A stretch of 64,000 nt of DNA from Candidatus Altimarinota bacterium (GTDB lineage Bacteria > Patescibacteriota > Gracilibacteria > BD1-5 > UBA6164): contig JALSMB010000008.1 of the NCBI GenBank assembly GCA_026988025.1, positions 1,335-65,334 of the forward strand. Reading direction: 5' to 3'. Of this stretch, positions 2,130 to 10,079 are shown in pieces (positions within the stretch are counted from its first letter, which is position 1; each line of letters starts with the position of its first letter). Made by a program: the position numbers and the translations under genes. The notes below the pieces were generated by a model that had not been told where the DNA came from, did no database searches, and saw only the letters and a list, made by a program, of their open reading frames with translations.

Positions 2130-2930
2130 ATGCAAAATATAATAAATGACATGTTAGTTTGGCAAGCTAGTTTTACAGGACTTTTATTTGAAGTCTGAAT
2201 AATTGCTCTACTTTATATAGGTTATAAATTTTTTCCTAAAAGTGGTATTGTTATAATGTTTGAATTATTTTTCGAAAAAGCATATGAGTTTTTCGAAGAT
2301 ATACTTTGAAAAGATGAAAAGAAATGGATAAAAATGTATATTATAGGTATGTTTTTTATAATAGTTTTTTCAAATCTTTTATGAGTTTTTTTAGAATTTC
2401 TAACACCTGTGTTTTGACATTCTATGGAAGAATTTATAAAAATACCAACGGCTGATATTAACTTTAATATAGCTATGGCAGTTGTATGAGTTATAATTGT
2501 TATATTAGAACAATTTAAGGCTTTGTGATTTTGGAAGGCTATACATGAATATGTTCCAATTAAATGAAAAGATTTAATTCCTTTTGAAAGATGAAATCTT
2601 CCATTTGCTGTAGATTGGTTTGTATATATATTGGTAAAGTTTTTTGATATAGCTATATCAATGTTCTTATGAGTATTAGAAATAGTTGGTCACGCTGCAA
2701 AAGTTATTTCATTATCATTTAGGTTATTTTGAAATATGACATCAGGGGGAATATTATTAGCAATGTTGATATGAGGAGTGTCTGCTCTGACAACTTCATT
2801 GGTAGGTATAGAGTTTCCAATTATTTGACCTGTAATATTATATTTACAAGAATTACTTGTTGCTTTTATACAAGCATTAGTATTTCCATTATTGGTAGCA
2901 ATTTTTATTAAAGTTGCAAAAGTGCATTAG
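2130..2930 (+). CDS. atpB: F0F1 ATP synthase subunit a
   Basis: ATG 2130, TAG 2928-2930. Polytopic hydrophobic protein with AAKVISLSFRLFGNMTSGGILLAML (stator Arg in RLFGN; that Gly is a TGA codon). First gene of the atp operon. Confidence 0.9.
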
Positions 2931-2969: not shown

Positions 2970-4304
2970 ATGGATTTATTGAATTACGTATGACCTGGTT
3001 TAGCGGTATGACTTGCATGAGTATGAGTTGCAATTGGTCAATGAATGTTAGCTAAAAAAGCTATGGAAGTTATGGGTAAAAATAGTTCTTTAACTAGTTT
3101 TTACTTAACAATAACAATATTAGGTATAGCATTAGTAGAATCAGCAGTTATATACTGATTAGTAGTTGCTTTTCAATTAATAGGTTCACCTGATTTATCT
3201 CTTTCTTCTTCAATTTGAGCATGATTAGCTATTTGATTAGCTTGAATGTGAGCTTGAATCTGAGAATGATTTGTTATAGCTTGAGCATTGGATGCAATCG
3301 ATAGAAGACCAGAAATAAAATGAAAAATAATGAGTTTTATGGTTCTATTTGTAGCATTAGTAGAAGTAGTTGCAATATATGGTTTAATTATTGCATTTAA
3401 AATAATTGCTGATGGATGAGAATGAATTACTCATATATGAGCATGATTAGCAGTATGACTTGCGTGAGTATGAGTTGCAATTGGTCAATGAATGTTAGCT
3501 CAAAGATCTATGGAAGTTACTTCTAAGACTCCAGAACTTACTACTTTTTACTTAACAATAACTATATTAGGTATAGCATTAGTAGAATCAGCTGTTATAT
3601 ACTGATTAGTAGTTGCTTTTCAATTATTAGGAGCTGATACTGTATCATATTATGGAGCTATTTGAGCATGATTAGCTATATGATTAACTTGATTAGGTGC
3701 ATGAGTATGAGAATGACAATTAATAGCAGGTGCTTTATCTTCAATGAATAGAAATCCAGCAATTAAGGGTAAGTTAATGACATTTATGGTATTGTTTGTA
3801 GCTTTAGTTGAAGTTACTGCAATATATGGTTTAATTATTGCATTTAAAATTATAGATGGTTGAGTTACTGAACCACTATATGCAGTATGAGCATGATTGG
3901 CTATTTGATTAGCTTGATTATGAGTTGGTATTTGAAGATGATATATGTCTGAAAAATCACTTGAAGTAATGGGAAAAAATCCAAAAATGATTTCATTTTT
4001 CTTAACAGTATCTATTCTTTGAGTAGCACTTATTGAATCTGCTGCAATATATGGTTTAATCGTAGCATTTCAAATATTATCTTTTACTTGACCAGTAGCA
4101 GCTGCTGTTGCGGCATGATTAGCGATTTGATTTACAGGGTTAGGTGCTTGATTAGGTGAATGATTACTTATAAAATGAGCAATGGATGCAATGAACAATG
4201 ATCCAGAAGCTAAGGGTAAGATAATGGCATTTATGGTATTATTTGTAGCTTTAATTGAAGTAGTTGCAATATATGGTTTAATTATTTCATTCCAAGTATT
4301 GTCT
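2970..4304. repeat. Intragenic tandem triplication (about 447-450 bp unit, two c hairpins per unit)
   Basis: Units 1 and 2 are near-identical over long stretches (3003-3053 vs 3450-3500; 3099-3179 vs 3546-3626). Unit 3 (about 3879-4304) is clearly homologous but diverged. Confidence 0.85.
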
Positions 4305-4484
4305 CCTGTAAAAGATGTAGTTGAAGATATATCTGTTGTTGAAAATAATAAATGAGATATAGTTGAAGTTATTGATATTAAAGAAGAAATAAATAATAAT
4401 GAAATTGAAAAAGTTGTAGAAATTGTAACTTCTACTTGAATAACTAGTAATGAAAATACTTGAAGTATTGAACAAACTAAATAA
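2970..4484 (+). CDS. atpE: F0 subunit c, six c-type hairpins fused in one 504-aa polypeptide plus an acidic C-terminal tail
   Basis: ATG 2970, TAA 4482-4484, with no TAA or TAG in between. There are six repeats of a GxGxGxGxG helix-1 motif and an L(V/I)E(S/V)xAIYGL helix-2 motif, with carboxylates E57, E132, E206, E281, E356 and E430. Lies between atpB and atpF. Confidence 0.85.
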
Positions 4485-4505
4485 TTTAAAATTTAATTTA
4501 TATAT

Positions 4506-4979
4506 ATGGATGATTTAAATGTAGCTGTTATATTGGCTCAATTTATAAATTTCTGAATAGTCTTCTTCATTTTTTATTACTTTTTAGGTAAAACAATTGT
4601 TAAAACAATTGAAGAAAGAAGATCACAAATAGAAAACTTAGATAATTCTGAAGATGTTGTTAGAGAAAAACTTGAAGCAGCACAAGAAGAAGCTAAGGAA
4701 ATAATTAATGAGGCTAGAAAAAATGCTTCAGATATGCAAAAAAATGCTGATGAATTATCTAAAAGAGATACGGCAGCTAAATTAAAAATTGCTGAAGAAA
4801 AAGCAGAATGAATTATGAATTCAGCAAAAAGAGATATTGAAAAAGAAAGATTAAGTATGATTGAATCAATGAAGAAAAAAGTTCTTGATTTATCATTAAA
4901 AATCAATTCTAAAGTTTTTGATAATAAAGATAATAATAAAGAATTTATATCTAAAGAAGTTAATTCTATAAAACTATAA
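4506..4979 (+). CDS. atpF: F0 ATP synthase subunit b
   Basis: N-terminal TM helix (VAVILAQFINFGIVFFIFYYFLG) followed by a long charged coiled coil (EERRSQIENL...EEAKEIINEARKNA...). Operon position after atpE. Confidence 0.85.
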
Positions 4980-4982
4980 AAT

Positions 4983-5330
4983 ATGCAAAATCTAGAATGA
5001 TTAGATAAAGCTGAGTTAGAGGAACTTTTAAAAGATTTAAAAGTTTATAATGACTTAATTAAAAAAGTTTGAAAAAGATGAAAAGATATTTTCAATAATA
5101 AATTTAATTGAATTAATCAATATTCAGTTGAATATTACGGAGATATGGATGAATCTTATATTCTATCAGAAGCTAAGAAAATTTATAAAAAAATGTTTAA
5201 TATTGATGTTGCTGACGTTGATATTAAATTAATAAAGAATGAAAAAATAAAATGAGGAATGAAAATTTATCTAAATGATAATTTAGTTGATATGAGTTTC
5301 TTAAAATTTTACAATATGTTGAATAAATAA
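4983..5330 (+). CDS. atpH: F1 ATP synthase subunit delta (OSCP), unusually short at 115 aa
   Basis: Sits between atpF and atpA. C-terminal block KIKGGMKIYLNDNLVDMSF matches the conserved delta C-terminus (GG..i..gd.v.D.S). Confidence 0.65.
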
Positions 5331-5359: not shown

Positions 5360-6865
5360 ATGTCTAACGATTTACTTAATAATATCATAAGTGAAGTTGA
5401 AAAAAAATTAGACTCGACTTCTGTTAATCCAGAAATCGAAAATGTCTGAGAAGTTTTCTATTTATGAGATGGTGTTGCAAAAGTTTCTGGTTTAAGAAAT
5501 GTTGCTTACAATGAATTAGTTGAATTTGAAAGCGGTGCAGTTTGAGTTGCTCTTAACTTAGAAGAACATTATGTATGAGTAGTTATACTTTCAGGATTTT
5601 TATCTATTAAAGAAGGTGAAAAAGCTAAAGCTACTGCTAAAACATTAGAAGTTCCAGTTTGAAAAGGTCTTGTTGGTAGAGTAGTTGATGCACTTGGTAA
5701 TCCAATTGATGGATTAGGTGAAATGAAATCTACTGAAAAATACCCAATTGAAAGAGTAGCTACTGGTGTAATGGATAGAAAATCTGTACATGAACCAATG
5801 GAGACAGGGCTTAAAGCAATTGATGCACTTGTACCAGTTGGTAGAGGACAAAGAGAGCTTATTATCGGTGATAGGCAAACAGGTAAAACTCAAGTAGCTA
5901 TTGATGCAATTTTAAATCAAAAAGGTAACGGTGTAACTTGTGTTTATGTTGCTATTGGTCAAAAAGAAGCAAAAGTTGCTAGAGTAGTTGAAGAATTAAG
6001 AGCTAGAGGAGCAATGGATTATACTATTGTTGTTGTTGCTTGAGCTTCTGATCCAGCTTCAATGCAATATTTAGCTCCATATGCAGGTTGTGCGATGGCT
6101 GAATACTTTATGTTTAATAAAGGACATTCTTTAATTATATATGATGATTTAACTAAACAAGCAAATGCTTATAGAGAGATGTCATTGTTATTAAGAAGAC
6201 CACCAGGTAGAGAAGCTTACCCATGAGATGTTTTCTATCTTCACTCTAGATTATTAGAAAGATCTTCTAAATTAAATGATGAATTAGGTAATGGTTCAAT
6301 GACTGCACTTCCAATTATTGAAACTCAAGCTTGAGATGTATCTGCATATATTCCAACAAATGTAATTTCAATTACAGATGGTCAAATATTTTTAGAATCA
6401 GATTTATTTAATTCAGGTCAAAAACCAGCAATTAATGTATGATTATCAGTTTCAAGAGTATGAGGTGCTGCACAAATTAAAGCAATGAAAAAAGTATCAG
6501 GTACTTTGAAATTAGATCTTGCTCAATATAGAGAGTTAGCTGCATTTTCACAATTTGCTTCTGATTTAGATCCAGCTACTAGAGCTCAACTTGAAAGAGG
6601 TGAAAGAATGATGGAATTATTAAAACAAGGTGTATTTGAACCAGTTTCTGTTGCAAAACAAACTTGTGTAATGTATGCTTGAGGTAAAGGTTTCTTTGAT
6701 AAAATTGAAGTTTCTAAAATTAAAAAAGCTGAATCAGATTTATATTTAAGTCTTGATGAAGAAAAAACAATTATTGAAAGTATATCTAAAGATGGTAAAA
6801 TGTCTGAAGATGCTGAAAATAAATTAAAAGATGTTATAGCTAAAGTAGTTGAACTTAATAAATAA
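5360..6865 (+). CDS. atpA: F1 ATP synthase subunit alpha
   Basis: [14 protein letters not shown]-loop, [21 protein letters not shown] (Gly = TGA 6224-6226) and [24 protein letters not shown]. Confidence 0.97.
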
Positions 6866-6873
6866 TTTTTATC

Positions 6874-7779
6874 ATGGCAAATTGAAAAGAAATCAAAAGA
6901 AGAATCTGATCAATTAAAAATACAGCAAAGATAACTAAAGCTATGGAGCTTATTTCAACTGTAAAGATGAAAAAAGCTCAAGATTTAGCTCTTGAAAAGA
7001 AAGAATATATTACTTGAATACTTAAAGTAGTTGAAAATCTAAATGATAGTCTTTCTGAAAATGTATTTTTTGAATGAGTGGAGAATCCTTCTAAAACACT
7101 TTGAATTATTATTACTTCAAATAAATGATTATGTTGAGGTTATAATATAAATGTAATGAAAAAAGTTAATGAATATATGAAGTTAAATGATGAGCAAATA
7201 GATTTTGTTTCTCTTTGAAAAAGAGGGTCACAATTTATTGCTAGAACAGGGAATAAGATTATTGCTGATTTTTCTGAAGACTTTACTGATAATATTGATT
7301 ATTCTTTTTCGAAAAATGTATCTAGATTTATTAGTGAAAAATTTTCTACTGAAGGATATGATAAAGTTGTTATTTTTTATAATTATTATAAAAATACAAT
7401 TACTCAAATTCCTGTAGCTAGACAATTTTTACCTTTAACTGATAGAGGAATAGAAAAATATTTTGAAGCAATACTTTGAGATGAGTATAAAAAATCTGAA
7501 AATATTAAATCTTCATATAAGTATACTGTTGAGCCAACAGTTGAAGAATTAGTAGATGAAGTTTTACCAATGTTAATAGATTCAATGTTTTATGATATTT
7601 TGATTGAATCAAAAGCGTCAGAGCATAGTTCTAGAATGATTGCAATGAAGAATGCTAAAGATAATGCAAATAAATTTGCATCTAAATTACAACTTCAATA
7701 CAACAAGGCTAGGCAAGCATCTATAACAAAAGAAATTTCTGAAATTGTAGGTTGAGTTGAATCTATGAAAGATATGTAA
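6874..7779 (+). CDS. atpG: F1 ATP synthase subunit gamma
   Basis: N-terminus [36 protein letters not shown] and C-terminus [16 protein letters not shown], both canonical gamma termini. Confidence 0.93.
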
Positions 7780-7857: not shown

Positions 7858-8205
7858 ATGAAAATTAAATTATATAGAATTATATTAAATATTTTATTTT
7901 ACGTATTTTACGTAATAGTAGTTTCAATTTCATTTTCTTTCATTTTTCCTACTATTCTTGTTATCTTATGACAAGATGTAATTGCTCCAAATAATCCTAT
8001 TTTTGATACTATACAAATAATAATAATAATCTTAGTTTTACTTATAAGTTTATTATTTAGAAGATTCTTTTATTTACCAATAAGAGAAAAAAATAAGATT
8101 AAAAAAGAATTAGAATTTAAAAAGTATGAAAAAAAAGATAAAAAAATAGAAGAAATAAATGATGAATTATGACTTGATATAAAAATAGGGAAAGAAATAA
8201 AATAA
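7858..8205 (+). CDS. Hypothetical small membrane protein inserted between atpG and atpD
   Basis: 115-codon ORF with two hydrophobic segments (ILNILFYVFYVIVVSISFSFIFPTILVIL; IQIIIIILVLLISLLF) and a Lys/Glu-rich tail. No family recognised. Confidence 0.5.
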
Positions 8206-8235: not shown

Positions 8236-9636
<1,401 letters not shown>

Positions 9637-9650
9637 TTAATTATAAAATT

Positions 9651-10079
9651 ATGAAATTAGAAATATTATCATTTACATGAAACTTATTTAGATCTGAAAC
9701 TGTAGAAGAGGTTACTGCTATGACTAAAGTTGGTGAGATTACTATTTTAGATAATCATACTCCTTTAGTTACTGTTTTAAAACCTTCTATTATTAGTGTT
9801 ATTTATACTGATGAATCTTGAGTTAAATCTGAAAAAGATTTTGCAATAGGTTGAGGTGTTTTAGAAGTATCTGATTCTTCTATAAAGGTTTTAATTGATA
9901 TGTTAGTATCAATTGATGATGTTGATGTTGATGCTGCTGAAAAAGCTAAAAAAGATGCTTTAGCTATGATGGAAAAATTCAAAGATGCTAAGGATAAAGT
10001 TGATATGGAAAAATTCATTGAAGCTGAAGATATGCTAATGAAATCAGTTGCTAAACTTAAGTTAAGTGAGATAAAATAA
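9651..10079 (+). CDS. atpC: F1 ATP synthase subunit epsilon
   Basis: MKLEILSFTGNLFRSETVEEVTAMTKVGEITILDNHTPLVTVLKP, followed by a helical C-terminal domain. Last gene of the operon. Confidence 0.85.

Follow-up and report, generated by a model that had tools for sequence, protein, structure and literature searches.

A predicted six-hairpin c subunit in the F-type ATP synthase operon of a Gracilibacteria genome

The window considered here is a stretch of 64,000 nucleotides from Candidatus Altimarinota bacterium (contig JALSMB010000008.1) with a GC content of 21.3%; all coordinates are positions in this 64-kb window. Between the genes atpB and atpF of an F-type ATP synthase operon, in the place of atpE, lies an open reading frame (ORF) of 504 codons in which six c-subunit hairpins follow each other. 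We read the ORF as the putative rotor (c) subunit of an F1Fo ATP synthase/ATPase, made as one chain of 504 residues with six linked hairpins, hence 12 transmembrane helices, and an acidic tail, and give this reading a probability of about 0.8. The number of hairpins in the c-ring sets the ion/ATP ratio of rotary ATPases, and the question of how this number is determined is an old one. To our knowledge, natural F-type rotors are regarded as homo-oligomers of one-hairpin subunits, with the hybrid rotor of Acetobacterium woodii as the single exception, and chains of several hairpins with every site kept were known to us only from archaeal A-type enzymes.

The six-hairpin c gene and its operon

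Pfam family PF00137 (ATP-synt_C) matches the translated ORF in six stretches (E 3.5e-84; 277.4 bits vs. a cutoff of 24), as anticipated in a first-pass annotation made from the sequence, which had claimed six c-subunit hairpins in one ORF between atpB and atpF. The top NCBIfam matches are F0F1 subunit C equivalogs, each also with six stretches (NF009999, 217.7 vs. a cutoff of 124), whereas the V-type K models stay under their cutoffs (NF011483, 161.6 vs. 188; NF004913, 145.5 vs. 211; NF005124, 60.9 vs. 127). The helix-2 carboxylates are exactly those initially listed (E57, E132, E206, E281, E356, and E430), with a spacing of 74–75 residues. For a homologue with six hairpins, translated with TGA as Gly (P0026), AlphaFold gives 12 long helices in six hairpins, with a predicted local distance difference test score (pLDDT) of 91.7 and a predicted template modelling score (pTM) of 0.92.

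Two kinds of hairpin alternate, A at positions 1, 3, and 5 and B at positions 2, 4, and 6, in an (A–B)x3 layout (Table 1). In A hairpins, helix 1 reads GxGxxxG(Q/R)G and helix 2 L(V/I)ESA(V/A)IYGL; in B hairpins, the two helices read GxGxGxGEG and L(V/I)EV(V/T)AIYGL, and the loop is R/N-x-P. The GxGxGxGxG helix 1 first attributed to all hairpins is thus present in the B type, but the A type reads GxGxxxGxG; likewise, the proposed helix 2, L(V/I)E(S/V)xAIYGL, fits all hairpins except 1 and 3 (LVESAVIYGL). Set against the loop motif R-(Q/N)-P, the B hairpins read RRP, RNP, and NDP and the A hairpins GKNS, SKTP, and GKNP. In hairpin 5, an Arg (R323) occupies the position that holds Gln in hairpins 1 and 3, and the signature over the six hairpins is QESAY EEVVY QESAY EEVTY RESAY EEVVY. 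The acidic tail announced in the first-pass annotation is present with adjusted limits (residues 448–504, 57 residues, instead of 446–504, about 60). It has no Pfam match, its length varies among close relatives, and it is missing from most six-hairpin homologues.

A and B hairpins are 32%–46% identical to each other. The A–B units 1 and 2 are 72%–73% identical in protein and 74%–81% in DNA, and unit 3 is 54%–61% identical in protein to units 1 and 2. The nearest paralogue of hairpin 1 is hairpin 3 (73% in amino acids, 81% in nucleotides), and the DNA repeat within the gene has a period of 447 nt. Judged by this pattern of identities, the (A–B)x3 layout arose via duplication of a two-hairpin unit.

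Table 1. The c gene, its hairpins and the genes of the operon. Predicted ion sites are given as residues 32/65 of the hairpin plus residue 66 of the preceding hairpin (I. tartaricus numbering for 32, 65, and 66).
Feature	Position	Strand	Description	Predicted ion site
atpB, Fo subunit a	2130..2930	+	266 aa; Pfam PF00119, E 1e-28	
Fused six-hairpin c subunit gene	2970..4484	+	504 aa under code 25; TAA at 4482–4484	
Hairpin 1	2970..3191	+	aa 1–74, A type; Q24/E57/S58/A59/Y62	Q24/E57 + V431 (hairpin 6 of preceding copy); Q/E+V
Hairpin 2	3192..3416	+	aa 75–149, B type; E99/E132/V133/V134/Y137; loop DRRPE	E99/E132 + S58; E/E+S
Hairpin 3	3417..3641	+	aa 150–224, A type; Q173/E206/S207/A208/Y211	Q173/E206 + V133; Q/E+V
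Hairpin 4	3642..3866	+	aa 225–299, B type; E248/E281/V282/T283/Y286	E248/E281 + S207; E/E+S
Hairpin 5	3867..4088	+	aa 300–373, A' type; R323 (AGA, 3936–3938)/E356/S357/A358/Y361	R323/E356 + V282 (T283); R/E+V
Hairpin 6	4089..4310	+	aa 374–447, terminal B type; E397/E430/V431/V432/Y435	E397/E430 + S357; E/E+S
Acidic C-terminal tail	4311..4481	+	aa 448–504, 57 aa; D/E 14 vs. K/R 5	
atpF, Fo subunit b	4506..4979	+	157 aa; Pfam PF00430, E 1.6e-19	
ORF in delta position	4983..5330	+	115 aa; sub-threshold OSCP match, profile 117–162 of 172, E 0.017	
atpA, F1 alpha	5360..6865	+	Pfam	
atpG, F1 gamma	6874..7779	+	Pfam PF00231, E 9e-83	
Hydrophobic ORF between gamma and beta	7858..8205	+	115 aa; no Pfam match	
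atpD, F1 beta	8236..9636	+	Pfam	
atpC, F1 epsilon	9651..10079	+	Pfam PF02823, E 6e-17	

Under genetic code 25, the c gene runs from the ATG at 2970 (with a preceding in-frame TAA at 2958) to its terminal TAA, and its 504 codons comprise 50 in-frame TGA and neither TAA nor TAG. The ORF is therefore uninterrupted, as first noted, with no hidden TAA or TAG and no frameshift that would split it. At this base composition (21% GC), the chance of 504 codons free of TAA and TAG is about 7e-20; the remaining two frames across 2970–4484 have 68 and 21 TAA/TAG stops. Read with table 11, the same region has 51 stops, 50 of them TGA. TGA accounts for 50 of the 74 Gly codons and, in alignments with standard-code c subunits (chloroplast, Chloroflexus, A. 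woodii), falls on the glycines of the GxGxG packing motif in helix 1. In orthologues, the codons opposite these TGA are GGT or GGA, never TGG. Readings with code 4 or code 11 are rejected on these two grounds. The reading of UGA as Gly is backed by proteomics in BD1-5 (PMC4032931). On the evidence of codon positions, TGA encodes glycine in the genome of the c gene (Gracilibacteria, code 25). Over the whole window ARAGORN finds no tRNA or tmRNA genes and, hence, no tRNA-Gly(UCA). The start contexts of the c gene (2958–2984) and of the b gene (4494–4520) are nearly alike over 27 nt (TAATTTATATATATGGAT..., 85% identical).

Public translations of the family mostly follow another code: 104 of 120 have Trp at the TGA positions (in the style of code 4), and they are mostly unnamed. 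Such translations carry about 50 Trp in the Gly packing motif, with an apparent identity of 78% vs. about 90%. The window protein itself is public only in the TGA = Trp form, without a name (P0311).

The repeats of the c gene are mutually 49%–81% identical in DNA. A separately assembled ENA sequence (L024) matches the window at 99.58% identity over 7.1 kb; its c gene differs from that of the window by five silent substitutions, and the protein is identical. Two further loci (L001 and L002), again from separate assemblies, share the six-hairpin signature, with 91%–94% amino acid identity over the six hairpins, and the 90% cluster of the c protein has eight members of 471–504 residues. Compared with L001 and L002, the ratio of nonsynonymous to synonymous rates (dN/dS) is 0.05–0.16 per hairpin and 0.65–0.92, or nearly neutral, in the acidic tail. 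These ratios indicate that every hairpin is under purifying selection. The L002 contig (WFPU01000238.1) is 2.5 kb long and holds a code-25 a-c[6]-b segment with proteins 84%–93% identical to those of the window; it sits in a metagenome-assembled genome (MAG) labelled Sulfurimonas sp. and is probably a mis-binned Gracilibacteria contig.

The operon around the c gene has the order a-c-b-(delta-like)-alpha-gamma-beta-epsilon and is, by Pfam, F-type throughout, with no V/A-type subunits; the c gene thus stands where the first-pass annotation had placed it. Subunit a bears in translation the stator Arg in ...SLSFRLFGNM.... The short ORF in the delta position is probably a truncated delta/OSCP. It is conserved in related operons, with 115–120 residues in Vampirococcus, L019, and GN02-872, and the delta of this clade may be a truncated form without the N-terminal domain. 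ORFs weakly like the hydrophobic ORF between gamma and beta (27%–46% identity) are found at the same place in six relatives (L003, L004, L006, L008, L009, and L012). The gap between gamma and beta contains an ORF of 110 residues in L019 and none in Vampirococcus (L018), and in GN02-872 (L020) it additionally holds an RNase H-like gene. Upstream of atpB, a large ORF (3–2000, + strand; >665 residues) reaches the edge of the window. It is kept at the same place in L001, L004, L010, and L011, and the gene at that position in L019 carries Pfam Beta_propel (PF09826). This ORF occupies the slot of atpI in other bacteria and that of a second c gene in some relatives.

Hairpin number in related genes

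A protein search yields 280 matches at E ≤ 1e-10, and hairpins were counted in the best 120 with a custom hairpin hidden Markov model. Every one of these best 120 of 280 is a multi-hairpin c subunit, with four hairpins in 37, five in 1, six in 64, seven in 14, eight in 1, nine in 1, and 10 in 2 proteins, and the named entries among them belong to Candidatus Gracilibacteria or Vampirococcus lugosii. Reference-genome loci were read under code 25 for the number of hairpins per c gene. Genes with two hairpins occur in Oral SR1 HOT-345 (L015), in L012–L014, L016, and L017, and as the second gene of L011; genes with four hairpins in L006–L010; and genes with six hairpins in L001–L005 and as the upstream gene of L006. 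A single ORF of 903 residues upstream of atpB in L011 has 12 hairpins, and the form with 13 hairpins has 968 residues (P0121). The order a-c[10]-b, with the sole c gene of the locus, is seen in Vampirococcus (L018) and in a Gracilibacteria contig of 971 kb (L019); in Oral GN02-872 (L020) the order is c[7]-a-b, and a and b have no c gene between them.

As translated here, the c genes of Gracilibacteria, SR1, and Vampirococcus span 2–13 hairpins, and the gene of the window is no one-off. An atpE of more than 400 residues in other Gracilibacteria, which the first-pass annotation had suggested looking for, turns up both in the protein search and in the code-25 reading of the loci. Its impression that a six-hairpin F-type fusion is without precedent is correct for the literature searched, but the fusion belongs to a clade-wide family. 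In open-access papers and bioRxiv, we found no description of a multi-hairpin c subunit in Gracilibacteria, SR1, the candidate phyla radiation, or Patescibacteria, the genome papers on Vampirococcus, Strigamonas, and BD1-5 being among those covered; the Vampirococcus genome paper aligned one hairpin of the 10-hairpin protein and left the fusion unmentioned.

The window protein fits the signature of the family, with Q32 and S66 in the first hairpin, E32 and V66 in the last one, Glu65 and Tyr70 throughout, and TGA-coded Gly in helix 1. In the lineage of the window, hairpins 1–2 are nearest to hairpins 3–4 (72%–75%); in that of L003, hairpins 2–3 are nearest to hairpins 4–5 (86%–89%). The remaining hairpins of both lineages match hairpins of four-hairpin genes. 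Since the internal duplicates differ between the two lineages, the six-hairpin state arose at least twice. Operons with alpha and beta subunits 82%–94% identical to those of the window nonetheless differ in hairpin number.

A second c gene is located directly upstream of atpB in L006 (c[6]+c[4]), L011 (c[12]+c[2]), and L005 (truncated c + c[6]). Added together as 6+4 and 12+2, the hairpin numbers hint that such rings may be heteromeric. The upstream paralogous genes (L006, 3554–4927, six hairpins; L011, 5920–8631, 12 hairpins; L020, 6001–7575, seven hairpins) are rich in E32/E65/S66 hairpins, that of GN02-872 being the sole c gene of its locus, and the upstream gene of L005 (3–173) runs off the end of the contig.

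Ion sites, ring closure, and rival explanations

The statistics on site residues cover 678 hairpins of 121 proteins. The equivalent of Glu65 is Glu in 678/678 hairpins and that of Tyr70 is Tyr in 673/678. By contrast, sites are lost in V-type proteolipids, in A. woodii c1, and in many archaeal multi-hairpin subunits. Residues 66 of one hairpin (i) and 32 of the following one (i+1) covary, with a mutual information of 0.75 bits vs. 0.31 for the reverse pairing. Ser66 followed by Glu32 is counted 391 times and Val66 followed by Arg32 90 times, and a Glu at the next position 32 never comes after a residue 66 other than Ser or Thr (0/116). In 102 of the 121 proteins, the last hairpin has V66 and the first one Q32. 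This pairing between 66(i) and 32(i+1), which holds also from the last hairpin to the first, points to head-to-tail ring closure with ion sites built across hairpin interfaces. Solved sites have this geometry. The F. nucleatum site takes E32 and E65 from a single subunit, with S66 and V63 contributed by its neighbor. In NtpK of E. hirae, whose hairpins are covalently linked, Glu139 and Gln110 belong to hairpin 2 and Thr64 and Leu61 to hairpin 1 (PMC2359735).

In the window protein, three types of predicted sites would succeed each other in a set order (Table 1): E/E+S three times, Q/E+V twice, and R/E+V once. The E/E+S sites are like the two-carboxylate Na+ site of F. nucleatum, but without Thr67. 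The Q/E+V sites resemble what we take, from an alignment with spinach and general knowledge, to be the H+ sites of chloroplasts or cyanobacteria. Arg-bearing hairpins form a conserved class, present in 78 of the 121 proteins, always with one in the penultimate position and sometimes with another at n-3, and the Arg-bearing hairpin comes after a Val66 hairpin.

If the ORF is the rotor subunit, two copies per ring (12 hairpins) would, most simply, close head to tail into the c-ring. Each ion site would be formed by residues 32 and 65 of one hairpin together with residues 63, 66, and 67 of the preceding one. Ions would bind at the hairpin interfaces and exchange at the Arg of subunit a, one per competent site, and the ring would rotate against subunit a as in any F-type rotor. 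In bacterial F-type enzymes, the c loops contact gamma and epsilon; because the F1-contacting loops sit at the other end of each hairpin, we would place both linkers and tail on the membrane side opposite F1. Since all carboxylates are kept, the fusion would not lower the ion/ATP ratio as the V-type duplication does, and 12 hairpins would give four ions per ATP if all sites are competent. Its effect would instead be to restrict the ring to multiples of six hairpins and to permit unlike sites in a set order. An engineered single-chain c10 of Bacillus PS3 synthesizes and hydrolyzes ATP (PMC8809890), so that covalent linkage between hairpins is compatible with function. Gracilibacteria/Absconditabacteria have no electron transport chain, and a scavenged proton-motive force or operation as an ATPase in reverse has been proposed for them.

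Several points weigh against this reading. An uncleaved chain and its assembly into a ring are predictions from sequence, and the structure model is that of P0026, which is 68% identical to the window protein. The covariation counts carry shared ancestry, and duplicated units inherit their neighbors. The specificity for H+ or Na+ is not readable from the residues; the Vampirococcus and Strigamonas papers inferred H+ specificity from one hairpin. Relatives with 7, 8, 9, 10, or 13 hairpins do not fit one ring size for the whole clade, and in certain relatives atpB is preceded by another c gene. A clade-wide ring of 12 was considered and discarded: 2, 4, 6, and 12 divide 12, but sole genes with seven or 10 hairpins and the genes with 13 do not fit. 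The restriction to multiples of six, already put forward in the first-pass annotation, holds only if the gene is the sole c gene; no further c-type ORF exists in the 64-kb window (six frames, code 25), and some relatives have two.

That last condition leads to the rival that survives best, although we consider it unlikely: a heteromeric ring in which a c gene beyond the window would supply a partner for the six-hairpin chain, in the manner of A. woodii c1 and c2/c3. The paired c genes of L005, L006, and L011 speak for it, as do standard-code operons in which a c[4] or c[5] gene accompanies a single-hairpin one. However, in relatives the extra gene always abuts atpB on its upstream side, where the window, L001, L004, and L010 have the unrelated large protein; the window offers no other candidate, and Vampirococcus and L019 have a single c gene in the locus. 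Clearly less probable still is a polyprotein precursor, cut post-translationally into units of one or two hairpins, which would then assemble in the ordinary way. Nothing points to it directly. The least conserved parts are the linkers, of about 6–9 residues in the P0026 model from AlphaFold, and the tail, but no conserved cleavage motif is seen in the linkers, and the order-specific covariation between neighbors, from last to first included, would be pointless if the units were released and mixed. In addition, the solved E. hirae NtpK and A. woodii c1 are two-hairpin chains, and the engineered c10 is active.

A K or proteolipid-like subunit of the V/A type is highly improbable. The multi-hairpin build is typical of V/A-type rotors, the V-type K models of NCBIfam match in part, and the Foldseek matches include NtpK and V-ATPase c; yet the K scores stay below cutoffs where the F0F1 c model passes, all carboxylates are kept, and the a, b, alpha, gamma, beta, and epsilon genes of the operon are F-type. 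A V-type identity is ruled out by the model cutoffs and the operon type. There is hardly any chance that the gene is an artefact of assembly or annotation (a shorter gene expanded in tandem, several separate genes in a row, or TGA misread as Trp or stop), in spite of the TGA = Trp translations in public databases and the 51 stops under table 11, because the repeats are too diverged for mis-assembly, separate assemblies agree on the gene, and selection acts on each hairpin, while the TGA codons sit at Gly positions with GGT/GGA in orthologues; expansion of the c gene during assembly is excluded by the first three of these observations.

Within the preferred reading of a fused rotor subunit, the sites and the hairpin numbers can be joined in a tentative and rather doubtful proposal, that of a programmed non-uniform gear in which site chemistries are ordered along the chain, the Arg hairpin is a blank, and the hairpin number tunes the ion/ATP ratio. 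The guanidinium of the penultimate hairpin would pair with Glu65, and that site would carry no ion. If so, a 12-hairpin ring would carry 10 and not 12 ions per turn (3.3 instead of 4.0 per ATP). Gain and loss of hairpins (2–13 per gene) would tune ion/ATP across Gracilibacteria/SR1, which are without a respiratory chain, and Vampirococcus, with its 10 hairpins, and others would build a whole ring from one polypeptide.

A fused c architecture of this kind would surprise a specialist of rotary ATPases; what we infer beyond it concerns what the fusion does, how large the ring is, and what part the Arg site plays. The window gene and the series from 2 to 13 hairpins would be natural F-type counterparts of engineered single-chain c-rings, in which sites of unlike chemistry can be placed in a fixed order along one chain. 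Close operons with unequal hairpin numbers would also offer a comparative system for the evolution of ring size, site composition, and coupling ratio, in bacteria without known means of generating a proton-motive force.

Comparison with known rotors

The window protein has the sequence, the carboxylates, and the operon of an F-type c subunit and departs from that class in not being a single hairpin of about 8 kDa. With the V/A type it shares the multi-hairpin build, and neither a K-model score above cutoff nor a V/A operon. From the A. woodii type it differs by having lost no carboxylate and by the absence of a single-hairpin partner gene in the operon. By sequence and fold, the nearest solved chain is A. 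woodii c1, followed by E. hirae NtpK and the V-ATPase proteolipids, and each covers about two of the six hairpins.

A. woodii c1 (PDB 4BEM chain J), the top PDB match by sequence (E 8.9e-16, with a whole A–B unit aligned) and also by structure, likewise occurs naturally, has more than one hairpin, and is encoded within an F-type operon. Unlike the window protein, it has two hairpins with one ion site and is present as one copy among nine c2/c3 (PMC9171764). Its second hairpin has Gln at the carboxylate position, whereas the window protein keeps all six carboxylates, and no single-hairpin partner gene is found within the window. The V-type proteolipids (E. hirae NtpK and eukaryotic c/c'/c'') share duplicated hairpins and a site formed by two linked hairpins, and each matches two hairpins of the model with template modelling scores of 0.76–0.82 (target-normalised); they differ in having one carboxylate per two hairpins and V-type operons. 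The F. nucleatum c11 ring shares with the B-type hairpins Glu at 32 and 65, Ser66 of the neighbor, and Tyr70. Its subunits are, however, identical single hairpins, whereas the window protein has Ala for Thr67 and sites of the Q/E+V and R/E+V types in alternation.

The engineered c10 of Bacillus PS3 and the fused c2/c3 of E. coli have linked F-type hairpins and retain synthesis and hydrolysis (PMC8809890). These chains are made of identical units joined by artificial linkers, whereas the window protein is natural, with diverged hairpins under selection; natural genes similar to the engineered c10 are those with 10 hairpins in Vampirococcus and L019. Archaeal A-type c subunits have 2, 3, or 13 hairpins, and those other than M. 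kandleri have fewer ion-translocating residues (PMC9171764). The c subunit of M. kandleri (13 hairpins, 1021 residues) shares with the window protein many hairpins per chain, each with a full set of ligands (PMC2359735), but it belongs to an archaeal A1Ao enzyme, with the complete Na+ ligand set in every hairpin and no alternation of site chemistry.

Standard-code operons (L021 and L023) share with the window an F-type context and a multi-hairpin c gene between atpB and atpF. Unlike in the window, a single-hairpin c gene always stands beside the multi-hairpin one, in the arrangement atpI-a-c[4 or 5]-c[1]-b-b'-... (L021, 1287–2261; L023, 5566–6870; P0143 and P0140), and the carboxylate is often lost in some of the hairpins (patterns such as EQED, EQE, and EQQQQ). 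Their multi-hairpin c subunits are about 25% identical to P0003, the closest database homologue of the window protein; P0003, the query of the exhaustive search, is a TGA-as-Trp translation, which biases that search. There are about 100 cluster representatives of such c subunits with four or five hairpins, among which EQED is the commonest carboxylate pattern. These operons resemble the A. woodii hybrid rotor in an enlarged form; we found no description of the four- and five-hairpin operons in the literature. In Asgard archaea (Promethearchaeota and Hodarchaeota MAGs), a c/K subunit of 14 hairpins occurs (P0147/P0282, 1139–1147 residues), with Glu in all 14 hairpins and one hairpin more than the 13 of M. 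kandleri.

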